Positions 51,679 to 55,408 of a DNA stretch of 64,000 nt are shown here, in pieces (the first letter of the stretch is position 1; each line of letters starts with the position of its first letter). A program made the translations under genes and the position numbers. Below the pieces are notes generated by a model. That model was given only the letters and a program-made list of their open reading frames with translations, did not search any database and had not been told where the DNA came from. Source of the stretch: Escherichia phage vB_vPM_PD114; sequence record MH675927.1; one strand, written 5' to 3'.

Positions 51679-51945
51679 ATGACAGAACGTACTTATGGTA
51701 AAGAATTGATTGAGAAGCACGTATTGATTGATAATAAAGGTGGAGCAATCTTTATTTTTGAACCTGAATCAGTTCTTACTGAAAACGAAAATGGTAGCGT
51801 TAGCCTTAAAACAGAAAGTTTGGTAATTGACTTCCTTGCTCTTCTGGATGAAATGGGGCTTCCGCACGAAGAAGAAGCAGCTATTGCTTTGATTACAGTT
51901 CTTCTGGAGAAACGCGAAGCTGGTGAAATGACCCAGTATGCTTAA
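51679..51945 (+). CDS. hypothetical protein
   Basis: track ORF; SD aaaggagaaaac. Confidence 0.55.
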   Translation: MTERTYGKELIEKHVLIDNKGGAIFIFEPESVLTENENGSVSLKTESLVIDFLALLDEMGLPHEEEAAIALITVLLEKREAGEMTQYA

Positions 51946-51952
51946 TATTCAA

Positions 51953-52028
51953 GGTTCCATAGCTCACTGACGAGAGCGCACACCTCATAAGTGTCGAGGG
52001 CAGGGATTGTAACCCTGGGGAACCACCA
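51953..52028 (+). tRNA. tRNA with CAT anticodon (Met or Ile-lysidine), atypical T-loop
   Basis: acceptor GGTTCC/GGAACC, D-arm GCTC-actgacga-GAGC, anticodon loop CTCATAA, 3' ACCA; T-loop ATTGTAA non-canonical, 7:66 mismatch. Confidence 0.45.
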
Positions 52029-52059
52029 TTTAAAAGGAGATGCTATGCATCTCCTATAT

Positions 52060-52145
52060 GCAAGTGTGGTGGAATTGGTGATACACATTGTGCTTAAAAC
52101 GCAACGCTTAAATGATTGAGGGTTCGAATCCCTCCACTTGCACCA
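52060..52145 (+). tRNA. tRNA-Leu (TAA)
   Basis: 7-bp acceptor GCAAGTG/CACTTGC, anticodon loop CTTAAAA, long variable arm, T-arm GAGGGTTCGAATCCCTC, encoded CCA. Confidence 0.7.
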
Positions 52146-52147
52146 AC

Positions 52148-52253
52148 GCCTAGTAGGGTATTTGGTAATTCCGAGGCCATCAAAGCCTGAAAAATATGTT
52201 AGACCGCTTTGTCTAACTAAATACGAAATATGGTTCGATTCCATAACTAGGCT
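52148..52253 (+). ncRNA. atypical 106-nt tRNA-like RNA (possible TCA anticodon hairpin, long extra arm)
   Basis: perfect 7-bp acceptor GCCTAGT/ACTAGGC and canonical T-arm TATGGTTCGATTCCATA but about 30 nt too long; 7-bp extra hairpin gttagac-cgcttt-gtctaac; fold not computed. Confidence 0.3.
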
Positions 52254-52285
52254 TCAATTTAAATAATAATTTTAGTAAAAATATC

Positions 52286-52314
52286 TTGACATTCACTTAG
52301 TTTTTTGTTATAGT
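52286..52314 (+). promoter_or_regulatory. sigma70-like promoter (TTGACA-N17-TATAGT)
   Basis: about 12 nt upstream of tRNA-like gene at 52326. Confidence 0.5.
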
Positions 52315-52325
52315 TACTGTGAAAA

Positions 52326-52407
52326 CGGGGTGTATCTCACCTGACTTCTAATCAGGCGTTAACCGAGTAATTGGAGTATGCAGGTTCGAATCCTGTCACC
52401 CCGACCA
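52326..52407 (+). ncRNA. atypical tRNA-like RNA with TCT (Arg-type) anticodon hairpin, no canonical D-arm
   Basis: 7/7 acceptor CGGGGTG/CACCCCG, T-arm GCAGGTTCGAATCCTGT, ACCA end; anticodon-like hairpin cctga-CTTCTAA-tcagg begins at position 15. Confidence 0.35.
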
Positions 52408-52425
52408 AAAAGTTTTAAAAACTAC

Positions 52426-52454
52426 TTGACAAGCAAGATAGTTTTATGTTAGAT
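52426..52454 (+). promoter_or_regulatory. sigma70-like promoter (TTGACA-N17-TTAGAT)
   Basis: upstream of tRNA-Ser at 52471. Confidence 0.5.
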
Positions 52455-52470
52455 TTAAAGTATGATAACG

Positions 52471-52560
52471 GGAAGGTAGGGCGCAGCGGTGCGCAACCAG
52501 GTTTGAACCCTGGCCCATTGTAGCGATACGGTGATGGTTCGACTCCATTATCTTCCTCCA
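52471..52560 (+). tRNA. tRNA-Ser (TGA)
   Basis: acceptor GGAAGGT/ATCTTCC (one GU), D-stem GCGC, anticodon stem CCAGG/CCTGG loop TTTGAAC, long variable arm, T-arm, CCA; anchored to ORF track at 52531. Confidence 0.65.
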
Positions 52561-52578
52561 AATTCAACTAGGAGCTTT

Positions 52579-52731
52579 ATGAATTATAAAACTATTGGAC
52601 AGGTTGTTACCGGAGTTAAGATTGTAGATAATAAAGTTGTTTATGAGTATTCTAATCTTCAACAATCTGAAGATGGTAAAAATATTCGTATGGTAAAAGC
52701 AGAACAAAAAGATTCCGGTTGTTTTGAATAA
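52579..52731 (+). CDS. hypothetical protein (50 aa)
   Basis: track ORF 52531..52731 overlaps tRNA-Ser; trimmed to ATG after taggagc. Confidence 0.45.
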   Translation: MNYKTIGQVVTGVKIVDNKVVYEYSNLQQSEDGKNIRMVKAEQKDSGCFE

Positions 52732-52739
52732 TTAAGAAC

Positions 52740-52825
52740 GGTAGATTGGTGAAATGGTAGCCACAACAGTTTGCTAAACTGTCGTCGGAAACGGCGTGTA
52801 GGTTCAAGTCCTACATCTACCGCCA
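52740..52825 (+). tRNA. tRNA-Ser (GCT)
   Basis: perfect acceptor GGTAGAT/ATCTACC, anticodon stem ACAGT/ACTGT loop TTGCTAA, long variable arm, T-arm GTAGGTTCAAGTCCTAC, CCA. Confidence 0.7.
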
Positions 52826-52845
52826 AATTTATGCGAGGAGGATGT

Positions 52846-53226
52846 ATGCCAAGCAATGATTATATGCGGGAATACATGAAAACTCGGTGGCAGAAGCGAA
52901 GAGCTTCCGCAATCCTCCAGCTTGGAGGTAAATGTGTTAATTGTGGGTCTGTAGATGACTTGGAATTTGATCATAAAGATTCAAGCGAGAAGAAGTTTTA
53001 TATTAGTCGAATGAGTTCATGCTCTGAGGCTAAATGGCAGGAAGAACTTGCCAAATGTCAACTTTTGTGCCATGACTGTCACATGAAGAAGACAAGAATA
53101 TCCCAAGACATGGGAAACAGAATTAGAACAACGGTGTGTGTTTGCGGGGCAGTATTTTATAGTACAAAGGCTTATGCTGGACATACACGGTGGTGTAAAG
53201 AGTATGCATCGTTAGCCAAGCGGTAA
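52846..53226 (+). CDS. HNH endonuclease (free-standing, inside tRNA cluster)
   Basis: CVNCGS..DHKD..CHDCH HNH motifs; track ORF 52771..53226 begins inside tRNA-Ser, trimmed to ATG after gaggagg; 3' end overlaps tRNA-Lys by about 21 nt. Confidence 0.65.
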   Translation: MPSNDYMREYMKTRWQKRRASAILQLGGKCVNCGSVDDLEFDHKDSSEKKFYISRMSSCSEAKWQEELAKCQLLCHDCHMKKTRISQDMGNRIRTTVCVCGAVFYSTKAYAGHTRWCKEYASLAKR

Positions 53227-53280
53227 GGCACTTGACTTTTAATCAAGGGAGCGAAGGTTCGAATCCTTCACGATGTACCA
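53206..53280 (+). tRNA. tRNA-Lys (TTT)
   Basis: acceptor GCATCGT/ACGATGT (G1-U72), anticodon stem CTTGA/TCAAG loop CTTTTAA, T-arm GAAGGTTCGAATCCTTC, CCA. Confidence 0.7.
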
Positions 53281-53285
53281 AACAC

Positions 53286-53372
53286 GTAGGTATCGCATAG
53301 CGGCAATTGCTGGAGACTGTAAATCTCCTGCCCTTCGGGGCTTCGTTGGTTCGAGTCCAACTACCTGCACCA
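53286..53372 (+). tRNA. tRNA-Tyr (GTA)
   Basis: acceptor GTAGGTA/TACCTGC, anticodon stem GGAGA/TCTCC loop CTGTAAA, long variable arm, T-arm, CCA. Confidence 0.7.
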
Positions 53373-53379
53373 AATTAAA

Positions 53380-53463
53380 GATGGATTGGCCTAGTGGTTG
53401 GGCGACGGACTGTTAATCCGTGAACGAAAGTTCTAGCAAGGTTCAAATCCTTGATCCATCGCC
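53380..53463 (+). tRNA. type II (long variable arm) tRNA with GTT anticodon (Asn-decoding)
   Basis: perfect acceptor GATGGAT/ATCCATC, anticodon stem ACGGA/TCCGT loop CTGTTAA, extra arm gaac-gaaa-gttc, T-arm CAAGGTTCAAATCCTTG, CCA. Confidence 0.5.
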
Positions 53464-53471
53464 AGAATTAT

Positions 53472-53548
53472 GGACTTGTAGAGTTAAGGTAAACCCTCAG
53501 TCGCAAAGAGGCTTCTGGAATTGCAGGTATCGAATCCTGCCGAGTCCA
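53472..53548 (+). ncRNA. degenerate tRNA-like element
   Basis: acceptor GGACTTG/CGAGTCC and 8-nt T-loop GCAGG-TATCGAAT-CCTGC but no canonical 5-7-5 anticodon arm; no CCA. Confidence 0.3.
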
Positions 53549-53554
53549 ATTATT

Positions 53555-53629
53555 GCTCCTATCGTATAACGGCTATTACGGTTGCCTTGTAAGCAACTTA
53601 TCAGGGTTCGAGTCCTTGTGGGAGCACCA
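53555..53629 (+). tRNA. tRNA-Thr (TGT)
   Basis: acceptor GCTCCTA/TGGGAGC, D-arm GTA..TAC, anticodon stem GTTGC/GCAAC loop CTTGTAA, T-arm, CCA. Confidence 0.7.
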
Positions 53630-53652
53630 ATTTTAACTCTAAAGGAGTGTAT

Positions 53653-53976
53653 GTGACAGAAAAAGAGTTAGAGAAATATTTTAATATCAATGTTTTCGAT
53701 GGTTTTGATGATATTGAAGATGTTGAAAGATATTATGAAGTAGAGTTAGATAAGGATAACATTGTAATTCTTTCTGCCACTTATGATTGTGCATATTATG
53801 AAGGTGAATCTCACGTTTATTTTTATGATATGAAAACATCTTTGTTTTATGAAGTACACGCATATCATTGTTCTTGTTATGGTTTAGAAGGTCAGTGGGA
53901 ACCTGAAGAAATAGGTGATTTGAGCTTTACGGTTGCATATCTAAACAGACGTGGTGCATCTACTATTTTAAAATAA
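53653..53976 (+). CDS. hypothetical protein
   Basis: track ORF 53647..53976; probable start at second GTG after aaaggag. Confidence 0.5.
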   Translation: MTEKELEKYFNINVFDGFDDIEDVERYYEVELDKDNIVILSATYDCAYYEGESHVYFYDMKTSLFYEVHAYHCSCYGLEGQWEPEEIGDLSFTVAYLNRRGASTILK

Positions 53977-53990
53977 ATATTAAAAGCCTC

Positions 53991-54020
53991 TTGACAAAGG
54001 GGCTAATAATATGTTAGAGT
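53991..54020 (+). promoter_or_regulatory. sigma70-like promoter (TTGACA-N17-TTAGAG)
   Basis: upstream of tRNA-Gly. Confidence 0.5.
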
Positions 54021-54031
54021 AATATTGTTAA

Positions 54032-54106
54032 GCGGGTATAGTGTTAATGGTAGCATATGAGGTTTCCACCCTCCAGGTGCAGGTTCAAGTCCTGTTACTC
54101 GCTCCA
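54032..54106 (+). tRNA. tRNA-Gly (TCC)
   Basis: acceptor GCGGGTA/TACTCGC (one GU), anticodon loop TTTCCAC, T-arm GCAGGTTCAAGTCCTGT, CCA. Confidence 0.7.
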
Positions 54107-54537
54107 AGATTATTTAAATGGAATCGCTAGAGAAAATTTCTCTTTTCGCTCATGGTTTTCTCCTTCAAACTCTAGCGGTTCTTTTTAAGTGATTTTTTAG
54201 TTTATTGGAGATTCACTGCCTTAGTGTGAGCTAAAATCGAGGAGCCATCGAACTGTCTGATTAATGATTTGCGAATCATTATAGTTTTAAGACCCCGGCA
54301 GTTTTATGGTGTACCTCTTGAATGTGAATGATGACGGGTTTATGGTTATCCTGGTCGTTAAATATCCAAAAACCTATGTTCCCCTTGAGGGCTTGCGCAG
54401 GCAATGCCAATAAGTCCTGCATTTTCATTTAAAAGAGAATTTATAATGGAAAAAGATGAACTTAAGTATGCTAAGCCTCTGGCTTCTGCTGCACGAAAAG
54501 CAGTTCGTCACTTTGTGGTAACACTGAAGTAATTTAT
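54107..54537 (+). other. structured noncoding spacer inside tRNA cluster (candidate small RNAs)
   Basis: 8-bp stem cgctagag/ctctagcg then U-tract (approx 54125-54190); hairpin taatgatt-tgcg-aatcatta (approx 54259-54278); gcagg..cctgc hairpin plus U-tract (approx 54393-54430); no convincing ORF. Confidence 0.35.
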
Positions 54538-54612
54538 TGGAGATTAGCCTAGTGGGAAGGCAACGGCCTTTGAAGTCGTGATGACTAGGTTCGATTCCTA
54601 GATCTCCAGCCA
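54538..54612 (+). tRNA. tRNA-Gln (TTG)
   Basis: perfect acceptor TGGAGAT/ATCTCCA, D-stem GCC/GGC, anticodon loop CTTTGAA, T-arm CTAGGTTCGATTCCTAG, CCA. Confidence 0.7.
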
Positions 54613-54619
54613 AGATTTA

Positions 54620-54695
54620 CAGTGCGTAGCGCAGTTGGTAGCGTGGGAGCCTTGGACGCTTCAGGTCGCAGGTTCGAGTCCTGCCGCACTGACCA
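54620..54695 (+). tRNA. tRNA-Pro (TGG)
   Basis: perfect acceptor CAGTGCG/CGCACTG, D-arm GCGC-AGTTGGTA-GCGT, anticodon loop CTTGGAC, T-arm GCAGGTTCGAGTCCTGC, CCA. Confidence 0.75.
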
Positions 54696-54700
54696 AATTT

Positions 54701-54775
54701 GCAGAGATAGCTGAGACGGATTAGTGCTACCCTGAAAAGGTAGAAAGGATGGATCGTTACCATCTCTCTGCACCA
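54701..54775 (+). tRNA. tRNA-Phe (GAA)
   Basis: perfect acceptor GCAGAGA/TCTCTGC, anticodon stem CTACC/GGTAG loop CTGAAAA, T-arm GATGGATCGTTACCATC, CCA. Confidence 0.7.
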
Positions 54776-54852
54776 AATAACACCATCCAAGGAGTAGACT
54801 TGGTTAACTGTCAATAGCACATTGAGGCTTCTTACAGTGGTGTACTTATTAT

Positions 54853-54937
54853 GGCTAAGTGGTGGAATGGTATACACGATACGCTTAGAACGTATTGCCC
54901 CAAGGGATTGTGAGTTCGAGTCTCACCTTAGCTACCA
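54853..54937 (+). tRNA. tRNA-Leu (TAG)
   Basis: acceptor GGCTAAG/CTTAGCT (G1-U72), anticodon stem ATACG/CGTAT loop CTTAGAA, long variable arm, T-arm GTGAGTTCGAGTCTCAC, CCA. Confidence 0.7.
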
Positions 54938-54952
54938 AATTATTACAGATTG

Positions 54953-55031
54953 CGCGGGATAGAGGAGTCTGGTCGTCCTCGCCAGTTTCATATGCTGGAG
55001 ATCATCGGTTCAAATCCGATTCCCGCCTCCA
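54953..55031 (+). tRNA. tRNA-Met (CAT), possible initiator type
   Basis: acceptor CGCGGGA/TCCCGCC with 1:72 mismatch, D-stem GAGG/CCTC, anticodon loop TTCATAT, T-arm ATCGGTTCAAATCCGAT, CCA. Confidence 0.55.
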
Positions 55032-55089
55032 CTAAATACCTCCCTTCTGGTGTAATGATTAAATTACATTGACACCTCAAGGAACTCAT

Positions 55090-55172
55090 AGCTGGGTAGA
55101 TTTAAAAGAGTATGGTACTCAATATGGCTCCAAACCATAGATCAAGGGGTTCGATTCCTCACCTTGCTGCCA
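55090..55172 (+). ncRNA. tRNA-Trp-like (CCA anticodon) with irregular 5' region
   Basis: anticodon arm TATGG-CTCCAAA-CCATA, D-like arm GAG-TATGGTA-CTC, T-loop TTCGATT, 3' CCTTGCT-G-CCA; only 6/7 acceptor candidate, separated from D-arm by about 11 nt. Confidence 0.35.
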
Positions 55173-55177
55173 ATTAT

Positions 55178-55253
55178 TGTGGTATCGTACAGATGGTTAG
55201 TACACTCGACCGATAATCGAGAAACAACGGTTCGACTCCGTTTACCACGACCA
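55178..55253 (+). tRNA. tRNA-Ile (GAT)
   Basis: 76 nt; acceptor TGTGGTA/TACCACG (U1-G72), D-stem GTAC, anticodon stem CTCGA/TCGAG loop CCGATAA, T-arm AACGGTTCGACTCCGTT, CCA. Confidence 0.6.
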
Positions 55254-55366
55254 AACTCCGTGCCAGCGGTGTCTTCGAAGAACAAGCCTAGTTCCTTCTG
55301 AGATGGAGGGGTGCGACTCCTTAACGCACAATTCTAATAAAGCATTTCAACTTAACAGTATTTATT

Positions 55367-55390
55367 AGCCTCCTTATTGGAGGCTTTTTG
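55367..55390 (+). terminator. rho-independent terminator closing the tRNA operon
   Basis: agcctcc-ttatt-ggaggct hairpin followed by TTTTTG. Confidence 0.6.
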
Positions 55391-55408
55391 CTATTTATTG
55401 AATAAAAC

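Follow-up and report, generated by a model that had tools for sequence, protein, structure and literature searches.

The stretch of DNA analysed here (the window, 64,000 nucleotides of Escherichia phage vB_vPM_PD114, record MH675927.1) comes from a phi92-like myovirus (Justusliebigvirus, Stephanstirmvirinae) and has a G+C content of 37%. Positions 51900-55300 share 97-99% identity with Serratia phage KKP_3264 and with many Escherichia phages, and the + strand from 51953 to 55253 carries a cluster of tRNA genes. ARAGORN with default settings identifies 15 tRNAs in this cluster, none of which is a tRNA-Arg; in the near-identical phage KKP_3264, all 16 of the 16 annotated tRNAs lie in the homologous cluster and again none is for arginine. 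AGA makes up 24% of the Arg codons in the window ORFs (10 per 1000). It is a rare codon in E. coli, where the cognate tRNA is scarce. An earlier sequence-only reading had pointed to a tRNA-like gene within the cluster, at 52326-52407, with a consensus promoter just upstream, a perfect acceptor stem, a canonical T arm, an encoded CCA and a 5-7-5 hairpin bearing a UCU anticodon right after a short connector. All of these are present, and the locus is laid out as follows; position numbers of the tRNA type between the connector and the T arm are putative.

52286..52314, + strand: predicted sigma-70-type promoter, 11/12 consensus matches, TG present
52286-91, + strand: promoter -35 hexamer TTGACA, from sequence reading
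52292-308, + strand: promoter spacer of 17 nt with TG at 52306-07, from sequence reading
52309-14, + strand: promoter -10 hexamer TATAGT, from sequence reading
52326-32, + strand: 5' strand of the acceptor stem, CGGGGUG, 7/7 pairs with 52397-403
52333-39, + strand: connector UAUCUCA, 7 nt, between the acceptor and anticodon stems
52333..52334, + strand: U8 and A9, invariant in 90/90 aligned relatives
52335..52339, + strand: U-CUC-A, in which CUC (52336-38) is the predicted 5' strand of a new helix, in the place of D-stem positions 23-25
52335 and 52339, + strand: U52335, probable place of position 22, and A52339, probable place of position 26
52340-56, + strand: anticodon arm CCUGA/CUUCUAA/UCAGG, whose stem covaries
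52345-51, + strand: anticodon loop CUUCUAA, with U33 and A37 present
52347-49, + strand: anticodon UCU (reads AGA/AGG)
52357-79, + strand: segment of 23 nt between the anticodon arm and the T arm
52357..52364, + strand: linker CGUUAACC, 8 nt, from the anticodon stem to the 3' strand of the new helix
52365..52368, + strand: GAG-U, in which GAG (52365-67) is the predicted 3' strand of the new helix, in the place of D-stem positions 10-12
52368, + strand: U52368, probable place of position 13, opposite U52335; this U is invariant in relatives
52369..52379, + strand: D-loop-like strand AAUUGGA-GU-A-U, read as A14 A15 U16 U17 G18 G19 A20 ... A21 U48
52369-75, + strand: AAUUGGA, putative A14 A15 U16 U17 G18 G19 A20
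52376-77, + strand: GU, two extra nucleotides within the D-loop-like strand
52378, + strand: putative A21
52379, + strand: putative U48
52380-96, + strand: T arm GCAGG/UUCGAAU/CCUGU, numbered from position 49 on at the T stem; 99.3% paired in relatives
52397-403, + strand: 3' strand of the acceptor stem, CACCCCG, pairing with 52326-32
52404, + strand: discriminator A73
52405-07, + strand: encoded CCA

The predicted promoter was the top-ranked site in a promoter scan of 51800-55400, and phi92 and KKP_3264 share its sequence exactly or almost exactly. If it functions as a promoter, it would leave a leader of about 5 nt ahead of the mature 5' end. The phi92 homologue of the element has G73 instead of A73, and the element is kept in phi92 despite the lack there of about 125 bp immediately upstream. 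Three helices thus have the canonical form: the acceptor stem measures 7 bp, the anticodon stem 5 bp around a loop of 7 nt (U33 and a purine at 37), and the T stem 5 bp around a UUCRANY loop. A D-arm hairpin between positions 9 and 26 is absent, only 7 nt separating the acceptor and anticodon stems.

The sequence-only reading had proposed a covariance-model search as a check. The Rfam tRNA model RF00005 scores the element at 40.0 bits against a gathering threshold of 29 (E = 5.7e-5 for the whole window, span 52326-52404), so that by this test it is a tRNA, with a match well beyond chance. The alignment covers model positions 1-71 without truncation, sets 4 nt against the 15 positions of the D arm, in agreement with the earlier view that there is no room for a D-arm hairpin before the anticodon arm, and adds 20 nt in the variable region. 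R1, a covariance model of the relatives that includes the CUC/GAG helix described below, scores the element at 80.7 bits (E = 2e-21); the canonical tRNAs of the window reach no more than 24 bits. ARAGORN made no call at 52326-52407 by default, found nothing on the + strand at the element with relaxed thresholds and likewise made no call in its intron mode, and no canonical cloverleaf with other boundaries was found by software. With -ps80 the program reports a spurious tRNA-Trp on the opposite strand. Its mitochondrial mode proposes boundaries of 52312-52373 with another acceptor stem, which we reject because the 52326/52403 acceptor stem covaries. Rfam also lists FtrB, PreQ1 and a plastid 3'UTR family as weak hits (E = 2.9-8), which are at chance level.

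Relatives of the element were collected from isolated phages and from metagenomic viral contigs. Full-length copies were found by blastn in 253 isolated-phage records belonging to unrelated lineages: Justusliebigvirus, Felixounavirus, Sugarlandvirus, another T5-like phage, the Asteriusvirus jumbo phages (~350 kb), Vequintavirinae, one Vibrio phage and one Streptomyces phage. Nearly all of these records carry no annotation at the copy, and a few label it tRNA-OTHER or tRNA-Undet. IMG/VR was scanned with three patterns, each matching at least 120 loci: the anticodon loop and T-loop only (scan 1), the UCU loop plus TAANTGGA (scan 2), and GTAANTGGA..AT plus the T-loop with the anticodon left free (scan 3). 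Since scans 2 and 3 fixed parts of the D-loop-like motif (TGGA and AT), values for A20, A21 and R15-Y48 were recomputed on unconstrained subsets only. These were an unbiased set of 31 strictly parsed UCU copies from scan 1 and the isolated phages, with 18 more that were loosely parsed and judged by eye, and 14 bystander copies (11 with Arg anticodons, 3 with Ile anticodons) that were found solely through adjoining a harvested copy. Ninety distinct copies with a 7-nt connector form the alignment used for covariation. R1 recovers 87 copies in the scan-3 loci, among the matches listed, most of them with anticodons other than UCU, and default ARAGORN rejects 177 of 185 family copies. A search of E. 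coli complete genomes gave no match, so the element belongs neither to the host nor to the common prophages of E. coli. A scan of a genome collection yielded 120 loci, most of them chance matches to a short pattern; the real copies, about 28, sit mostly on metagenome-assembled contigs, and no cellular home is therefore claimed for the family. On this comparative evidence, the element is one member of a large, mostly unannotated phage family with a transposed D arm.

The 90 aligned relatives show compensatory changes throughout the acceptor, anticodon and T stems. In the acceptor stem, both sides change at 7/7 pairs and 98.9% of cells are paired. They also contain a helix between CUC (52336-38) in the connector and GAG (52365-67) in the 23-nt segment, that is, between strands that flank the anticodon arm. 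For this helix (alignment columns 11-13 against 47-49) 93.3% of cells are paired, against 51.9% after shuffling, none of 500 shuffles reaching the observed value, and 23-38% when the partner is slid. The pair types at the three positions are CG71 GC9 UA8 AU2, then GC35 UA27 CG19 AU9, then CG39 GC30 with 18 unpaired (n=90 each), so all four Watson-Crick types occur at two of the pairs, and RNAalifold predicts the helix unprompted. In a second set, the copies recovered by R1 in scan 3, the two inner pairs hold among the matches listed (CG72 foremost at one; CG37 and GC33 at the other), and the third is often C-A and mostly unpaired. The helix is short, with 2-3 Watson-Crick pairs and a U-U opposition. 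The linker that leads from the anticodon stem to its 3' strand varies from 3 to 15 nt across the family, most commonly 4, and is also free in sequence; such variation in length is as expected of a strand with no structural role.

Folding of the element as a single sequence gives a different result. The minimum-energy structure contains not the CUC/GAG helix but a local hairpin, CCGA/GUAA/UUGG, pairing 52363-66 with 52371-74. Considered as a class II variable hairpin, CCGA/UUGG is paired in just 50.3% of cells in the 90 relatives. The window sequence alone thus prefers the local hairpin, and the conserved fold is revealed by comparison only. The earlier description of a 23-nt segment after the anticodon arm is upheld, but the small hairpin drawn within it is not. 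The suspicion voiced at the time that the manual fold might be wrong was well placed for that hairpin, which the covarying CUC/GAG helix replaces, and for nothing else in the fold.

Several single-stranded positions are conserved in sequence across the same 90 relatives, namely U8, A9, the anticodon loop and a motif, U-A-A-Y-U-G-G-A, that resembles a D-loop. Within this motif the UA and the first G are invariant and the remaining AAYUGGA positions are conserved at 90% or more. The nucleotide after GG, the putative A20, is A in 31/31 unbiased UCU copies, and GGA is also found in the 18 copies parsed by eye. The putative A21 is A in 31/31 unbiased copies and in 158 of 160 overall (among the matches listed). 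The putative R15-Y48 pair is A-U in all 31 unbiased copies; in the 14 bystanders it is A-U in 9, G-C in 4 and G-G in 1, and over the 160 copies (among the matches listed) A-U in 154, G-C in 5 and G-G in 1. The switch from A-U to G-C is, as read from these copies, the classic alternation of the Levitt pair. The core nucleotides U8, A14, R15-Y48, G18 G19 and A21 are therefore all present, in a transposed order. Across the 160 family members, among the matches listed, the discriminator is G in 65, A in 52, U in 42 and C in 1, and CCA is encoded in 104.

The comparative data point to a D arm that is re-threaded, not missing: the 5' strand of the D stem and the D-loop are predicted to lie 3' of the anticodon arm. 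The sequence-only reading had offered an armless or a rearranged tRNA. The second of these agrees with the comparative data; the first does not, because the elements of the D stem and D-loop are present in another strand order. In the fold that we propose, the chain would pass from U8-A9 into U-CUC, normally the 3' half of the D stem, then through A26 into the anticodon arm; the 8-nt linker would lead to GAG-U, the other strand of the D stem, and from there the D-loop (A14 to A21) would run directly into U48 and the T stem. In effect, the segment 10-21 would have moved from the 5' to the 3' side of the anticodon arm, creating the new joins 9 to 22, 43 to 10 and 21 to 48. The resulting secondary structure would be a three-way junction of the acceptor stem, the D-stem-like helix and the T arm, and the D-stem-like helix could stack on the anticodon stem as it does in a normal tRNA. 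The nucleotides that build the L-shape would be retained (U8-A14, R15-Y48, G18 G19 for contact with the T-loop, and A21), as would the main determinants of bacterial ArgRS, A20, C35, U36 and A/G73.

The identity nucleotides and the distribution of anticodons bear on what such an RNA would do. Bacterial arginine identity rests on A20, the main determinant for E. coli ArgRS, with C35, U/G36 and A/G/U73, and bacterial isoleucine identity includes U20 and A73 (PMC9976931). In the element the arginine set is present: A52375 directly after G18 G19 (position 20 in the putative numbering), C35, U36 and A73. When the anticodon was left free, the copies carried, among the matches listed, the anticodons UCU, ACG, UCG, CCU, CCG and GCG, and otherwise a few Ile anticodons (GAU, UAU). 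The base after GG is A in 11/11 bystander copies with Arg anticodons; it is U, together with A73, in 3/3 bystander copies with Ile anticodons, and two more Ile copies at another locus (L269) also have U. This tracking of the anticodon by base 20, A for Arg and U for Ile, is hard to explain unless the RNAs are charged. The family also tends to occupy a vacant place in the tRNA repertoire of its neighbourhood. In 179 locus-by-anticodon cases (among the matches listed), a canonical tRNA-Arg with the same anticodon was present in 9; a further 48 had one with a different anticodon, and 122 had no canonical tRNA-Arg at all. Felixounaviruses, for example, carry a canonical Arg(ACG) gene beside the rearranged UCU gene.

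In our reading, the element probably encodes a working tRNA, the phage's own tRNA-Arg(UCU), and we put the probability of this at roughly three in four. It would be transcribed from its own promoter to give a tRNA that decodes AGA (and AGG); AGA is heavily used by this A+T-rich phage and served by a scarce host tRNA, which would create a demand for tRNA-Arg(UCU). The position numbering, the L-shaped fold, transcription, processing, charging by ArgRS and use on the ribosome are all deduced from sequence comparison and are put forward on that footing.

The most serious competitor is an RNA outside translation, a tRNA-like decoy, sponge or regulatory RNA that mimics tRNA-Arg and engages a tRNA-Arg-directed nuclease, a modification enzyme or ArgRS itself, of host or phage. 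Phage tRNAs are known for countering tRNA-cleaving defences (PMC10264068, PMC11464382, PMC11555353), and the targets of the various cleaving systems include acceptor stems, anticodon loops or stems, D-loops and variable loops (PMC12916289, PMC13096335). An odd architecture with a strictly conserved anticodon loop and A20 motif would equally suit a mimic, and a decoy of an Arg-specific enzyme could carry many of the conserved features. Against this, the family displays six Arg anticodons (among the matches listed) in slots left empty by neighbouring canonical tRNAs, a pattern more in keeping with decoding than with mimicry of a single target; the acceptor stem, discriminator, CCA and T arm are all intact; and the rare members with Ile anticodons switch base 20 from A to U, a change sensible only if the RNA is charged. 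We consider this alternative improbable. The related suggestion in the sequence-only reading of a tRNA-derived regulatory RNA found no support, given anticodons confined to Arg codons, a retained A20 and the filling of an empty anticodon slot.

Decay of a tRNA-Arg gene, by deletion of the D arm and insertion into the variable region, would account for the rejection by default ARAGORN, for the majority of GenBank records, which leave the element unannotated or call it tRNA-OTHER or tRNA-Undet, and for the other degenerate-looking tRNA-like sequences in the same cluster. A pseudogene would nevertheless not be expected to survive in hundreds of divergent phage contigs while four helices undergo compensatory changes and single-stranded motifs stay conserved, to have its own consensus promoter or to be retained in phi92 next to a loss of about 125 bp, and we disfavour this reading strongly. 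Equally slight are the chances that the 23-nt segment acts as a class II arm in a recoding tRNA, charged by SerRS, LeuRS or another synthetase, so that AGA would not be read as Arg. The segment is indeed as long as the variable arm of a class II tRNA, the discriminator is A73, and allo-tRNAs with non-serine anticodons provide a precedent (PMC5389517); but only 50% of cells are paired in what would have to be a conserved self-contained hairpin, A20 and C35 are invariant in members with Arg anticodons, and no other amino-acid family is represented except for the few Ile copies with U20 (the last two points among the matches listed). Finally, cleavage and religation of the transcript might restore the canonical order of segments, so that the mature RNA would be an ordinary cloverleaf. 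Whichever order the mature RNA had, selection would act on the same D-stem pairing and D-loop motif, and covariation alone therefore cannot separate re-threading from such processing. Cutting and rejoining would require two cuts and two ligations within the body of the RNA, and no bacterial or phage pathway of this kind is known to us. Nor is a bulge-helix-bulge or any other motif for processing apparent, and both the length and the sequence of the linker vary freely. This is the least probable of the readings considered.

Taken as a working tRNA, the element has much in common with the canonical tRNA-Arg(UCU) of bacteria and phages (E. coli argU, T4, T5). Both have a 7-bp acceptor stem, a 5-bp anticodon stem, the loop CUUCUAA, a T arm of the form G-C-A-G-G/UUCGAAU, a D-loop motif A-R-Y-Y-G-G-A with A20 followed by A21, A/G73 and CCA, and the element is located in a phage tRNA cluster; the match of its T arm to T5-like tRNA-Arg is 93.8% over 32 nt. 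Unlike the canonical molecule, the element has the 5' strand of the D stem and the D-loop placed 3' of the anticodon arm, a three-way in place of a four-way junction, and a linker into the D-stem strand where the variable loop would be. Metazoan mitochondrial tRNA-Ser(AGY/AGN) without a D arm (PMC4013460, PMC7609411) is likewise three-armed with a short connector, and by coincidence also reads AGN codons. The mitochondrial tRNAs are organellar and truncated (~55-65 nt), lack the contact of G18 G19 with the T-loop and have co-evolved factors, whereas the phage element has 79 nt plus CCA, keeps the D-stem pairing and D-loop motif elsewhere in the chain, and has to function with the ordinary enzymes of bacteria. 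Class II tRNAs (Leu, Ser, Tyr) also have some 20 extra nucleotides between the anticodon and T stems, but these form a self-contained hairpin beside a normal D arm, while in the element the segment pairs with the 5' connector. The allo-tRNAs and (8/4) tRNAs (Mukai et al. 2017, PMC5389517) are non-canonical, were mined from metagenomes and are in some cases found in phage tRNA clusters; they have an 8/4 or 9/3 split between acceptor and T stems and keep the D arm, in contrast to the 7/5 split and re-threaded D arm of the element. A more distant sub-family (e.g., loci L021 and L064) may combine an altered split with a re-threaded D arm.

The red alga Cyanidioschyzon merolae has circularly permuted tRNA genes, in which the permutation exists at the level of the gene and is undone by processing. 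The phage gene resembles these in its non-canonical order of tRNA segments and differs in that the transposition concerns an internal segment and most likely persists in the mature RNA, which would follow the order of the gene. To our knowledge, all working tRNAs outside organelles keep the four-arm cloverleaf, and the known exceptions alter the lengths of stems, not the order of strands. Searches of full-text literature outside the subscription journals gave no description of a phage tRNA that lacks the D hairpin or has a transposed D arm, and a 2020 review of natural non-canonical tRNAs includes nothing alike and no viral case. As far as the searchable literature shows, the tRNA with a transposed D arm is an undescribed structural variant.

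Why a phage would re-thread a tRNA can be addressed only tentatively. One possible explanation, as opposed to a frozen accident, is an adaptation against tRNA-directed nucleases or other host factors that keeps the L-shape and the ArgRS determinants. Re-threading would remove the hairpin, the loop or the variable-loop geometry seen by the nucleases, which might be those of host defence or the phage's own host-shutoff enzymes, and the phage would retain an Arg tRNA that survives when cloverleaf tRNAs are cut. Because tRNA-cutting host defences are well documented, escape by re-threading is a reasonable idea; we think it unlikely to be the actual cause.

Standard annotation misses or mislabels these genes, and phage tRNA repertoires, together with the codon-usage arguments built on them, are in consequence systematically short of Arg tRNAs. 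If the element is a working tRNA, it would show that another chain topology can also yield the L-shape, in a form that normal bacterial ArgRS, EF-Tu and ribosomes accept; the family would then provide a natural test case for the reading of A20 by ArgRS and possibly a new scaffold for the engineering of orthogonal tRNAs. The findings also raise the testable idea that phages reshape their tRNAs against tRNA-targeting immunity. Should the adaptation prove real, these genes would represent a structurally new class of tRNA competent in translation, shaped by selection in the arms race between phage and host.

An additional helix of 3-4 bp is present in members of the rearranged tRNA family, in which one D-stem strand and the D-loop lie 3' of the anticodon arm, whose segment following the anticodon arm is long.

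Rearranged copies with the additional helix: L134:3837-3927, L155:660-751, L196:6569-6657, L109:3452-3540, L175:7728-7811 and L083:7119-7203 (harvested phage and IMG/VR loci)

The pairings listed are AGTC/GACT, GGAC/GTCC, AGAC/GTCT, AGGC/GCCT, GTC/GAC and GGC/GCC, and the helix closes the post-anticodon segment immediately 5' of the A21-U48 pair (numbering inferred from canonical tRNA). It resembles the stem of a class II variable arm, except that its loop here contains the D-stem strand and D-loop. The window copy (52326-52407) is without the additional 3-4-bp helix.

A more distant sub-family of UCU tRNA-like sequences was found at L021, L023, L053, L056, L059, L061, L064, L065, L077, L093, L095, L108 and L111. 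The connector between the acceptor and anticodon stems is 9-11 nt in these sequences and pairs with the post-anticodon segment in a helix of 4-6 bp (e.g., CCCAC/GTGGG), which is followed by AAGGA or TGGA. A second covarying helix, joining the start and end of the post-anticodon segment, crosses the connector helix in a pseudoknot-like manner. The acceptor and T stems appear to be split 8/4.

Some rearranged tRNAs carry isoleucine anticodons (GAU, UAU) on an unchanged architecture.

Rearranged copies with isoleucine anticodons: L219, L214, L202, L232, L269:5764-5853 and L269:7511-7591

The discriminator is A73 in all six, U replaces A after G18 G19 in five, and the R15-Y48 position is G-C in several; these copies look like an identity switch inside the rearranged family. 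Anticodon loops of other kinds were also observed. The rearranged copy L251:5533-5614 has a loop of 8 nt (TGTTCTAA) and might be a four-base-anticodon or frameshifting tRNA. The tRNA-like gene L245:4371-4442 has the loop TGCTAAT, with the amber suppressor anticodon CUA; it shows no evident D hairpin and scores 35 bits with R1, the covariance model built from relatives of the window element.

A second odd tRNA-like sequence lies just 5' of the rearranged gene in the window.

52148-52253, + strand: tRNA-like sequence of 106 nt

It combines a perfect acceptor stem (GCCTAGT/ACTAGGC), a stretch resembling a D-arm, a T arm (ATGG/TTCGATT/CCAT) and, in the middle, a 7-bp hairpin (GTTAGAC-CGCTTT-GTCTAAC). 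ARAGORN called it in intron mode only, as an Asn(gtt) whose 18-nt intron is unusually placed, and an Rfam search returned no match with E <10. The related phage phi92 is ~125 bp shorter than the window between tRNA-Leu(taa) and tRNA-Ser(tga) yet keeps the rearranged element, and 52148-52253 may therefore be the stretch that phi92 lacks.

Four other sequences of the window cluster are tRNA-like or are called as tRNAs.

51953-52028, + strand: tRNA-Met(cat), ARAGORN call
52471-52560, + strand: tRNA-Ser(tga), ARAGORN call
53472-53548, + strand: unannotated tRNA-like sequence between tRNA-Asn and tRNA-Thr
55095-55172, + strand: weak tRNA-like sequence between tRNA-Met and tRNA-Ile

Neither the tRNA-Met(cat) nor the tRNA-Ser(tga) reaches the Rfam tRNA gathering score; in the phi92 record the former is a 'hypothetical tRNA' and the latter is flagged as a pseudogene. 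The sequence at 53472-53548, with acceptor stem GGACTTG/CGAGTCC and T arm GCAGG-TATCGAAT-CCTGC (8-nt loop), scores 20.6 bits with R1, was called neither by ARAGORN nor by Rfam at the gathering threshold, and is probably a degenerate tRNA. ARAGORN reports 55095-55172 as tRNA-Trp(cca) at a relaxed threshold only, and the acceptor stem of this call is poor; 55109-55169 within it scores 18.8 bits with R1, and t016 is missing from the phi92 tRNA numbering here.

Four GenBank records titled 'Campylobacter phage' (MG065639, MG065645, MG065656 and MG065689) share ~97% identity with phi92-like phages of E. coli over the tRNA cluster and are probably mislabelled or contaminant genomes. In three phages, genes for HNH homing endonucleases directly adjoin the rearranged tRNA.

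HNH genes: L005:1591-2100, L009:1584-2147 and L003:1-421 (Klebsiella phage Spivey, Serratia phage Kamaji and Salmonella phage BPS17S6)

These adjoining genes may help account for the spread of the rearranged tRNA gene among unrelated phage lineages.
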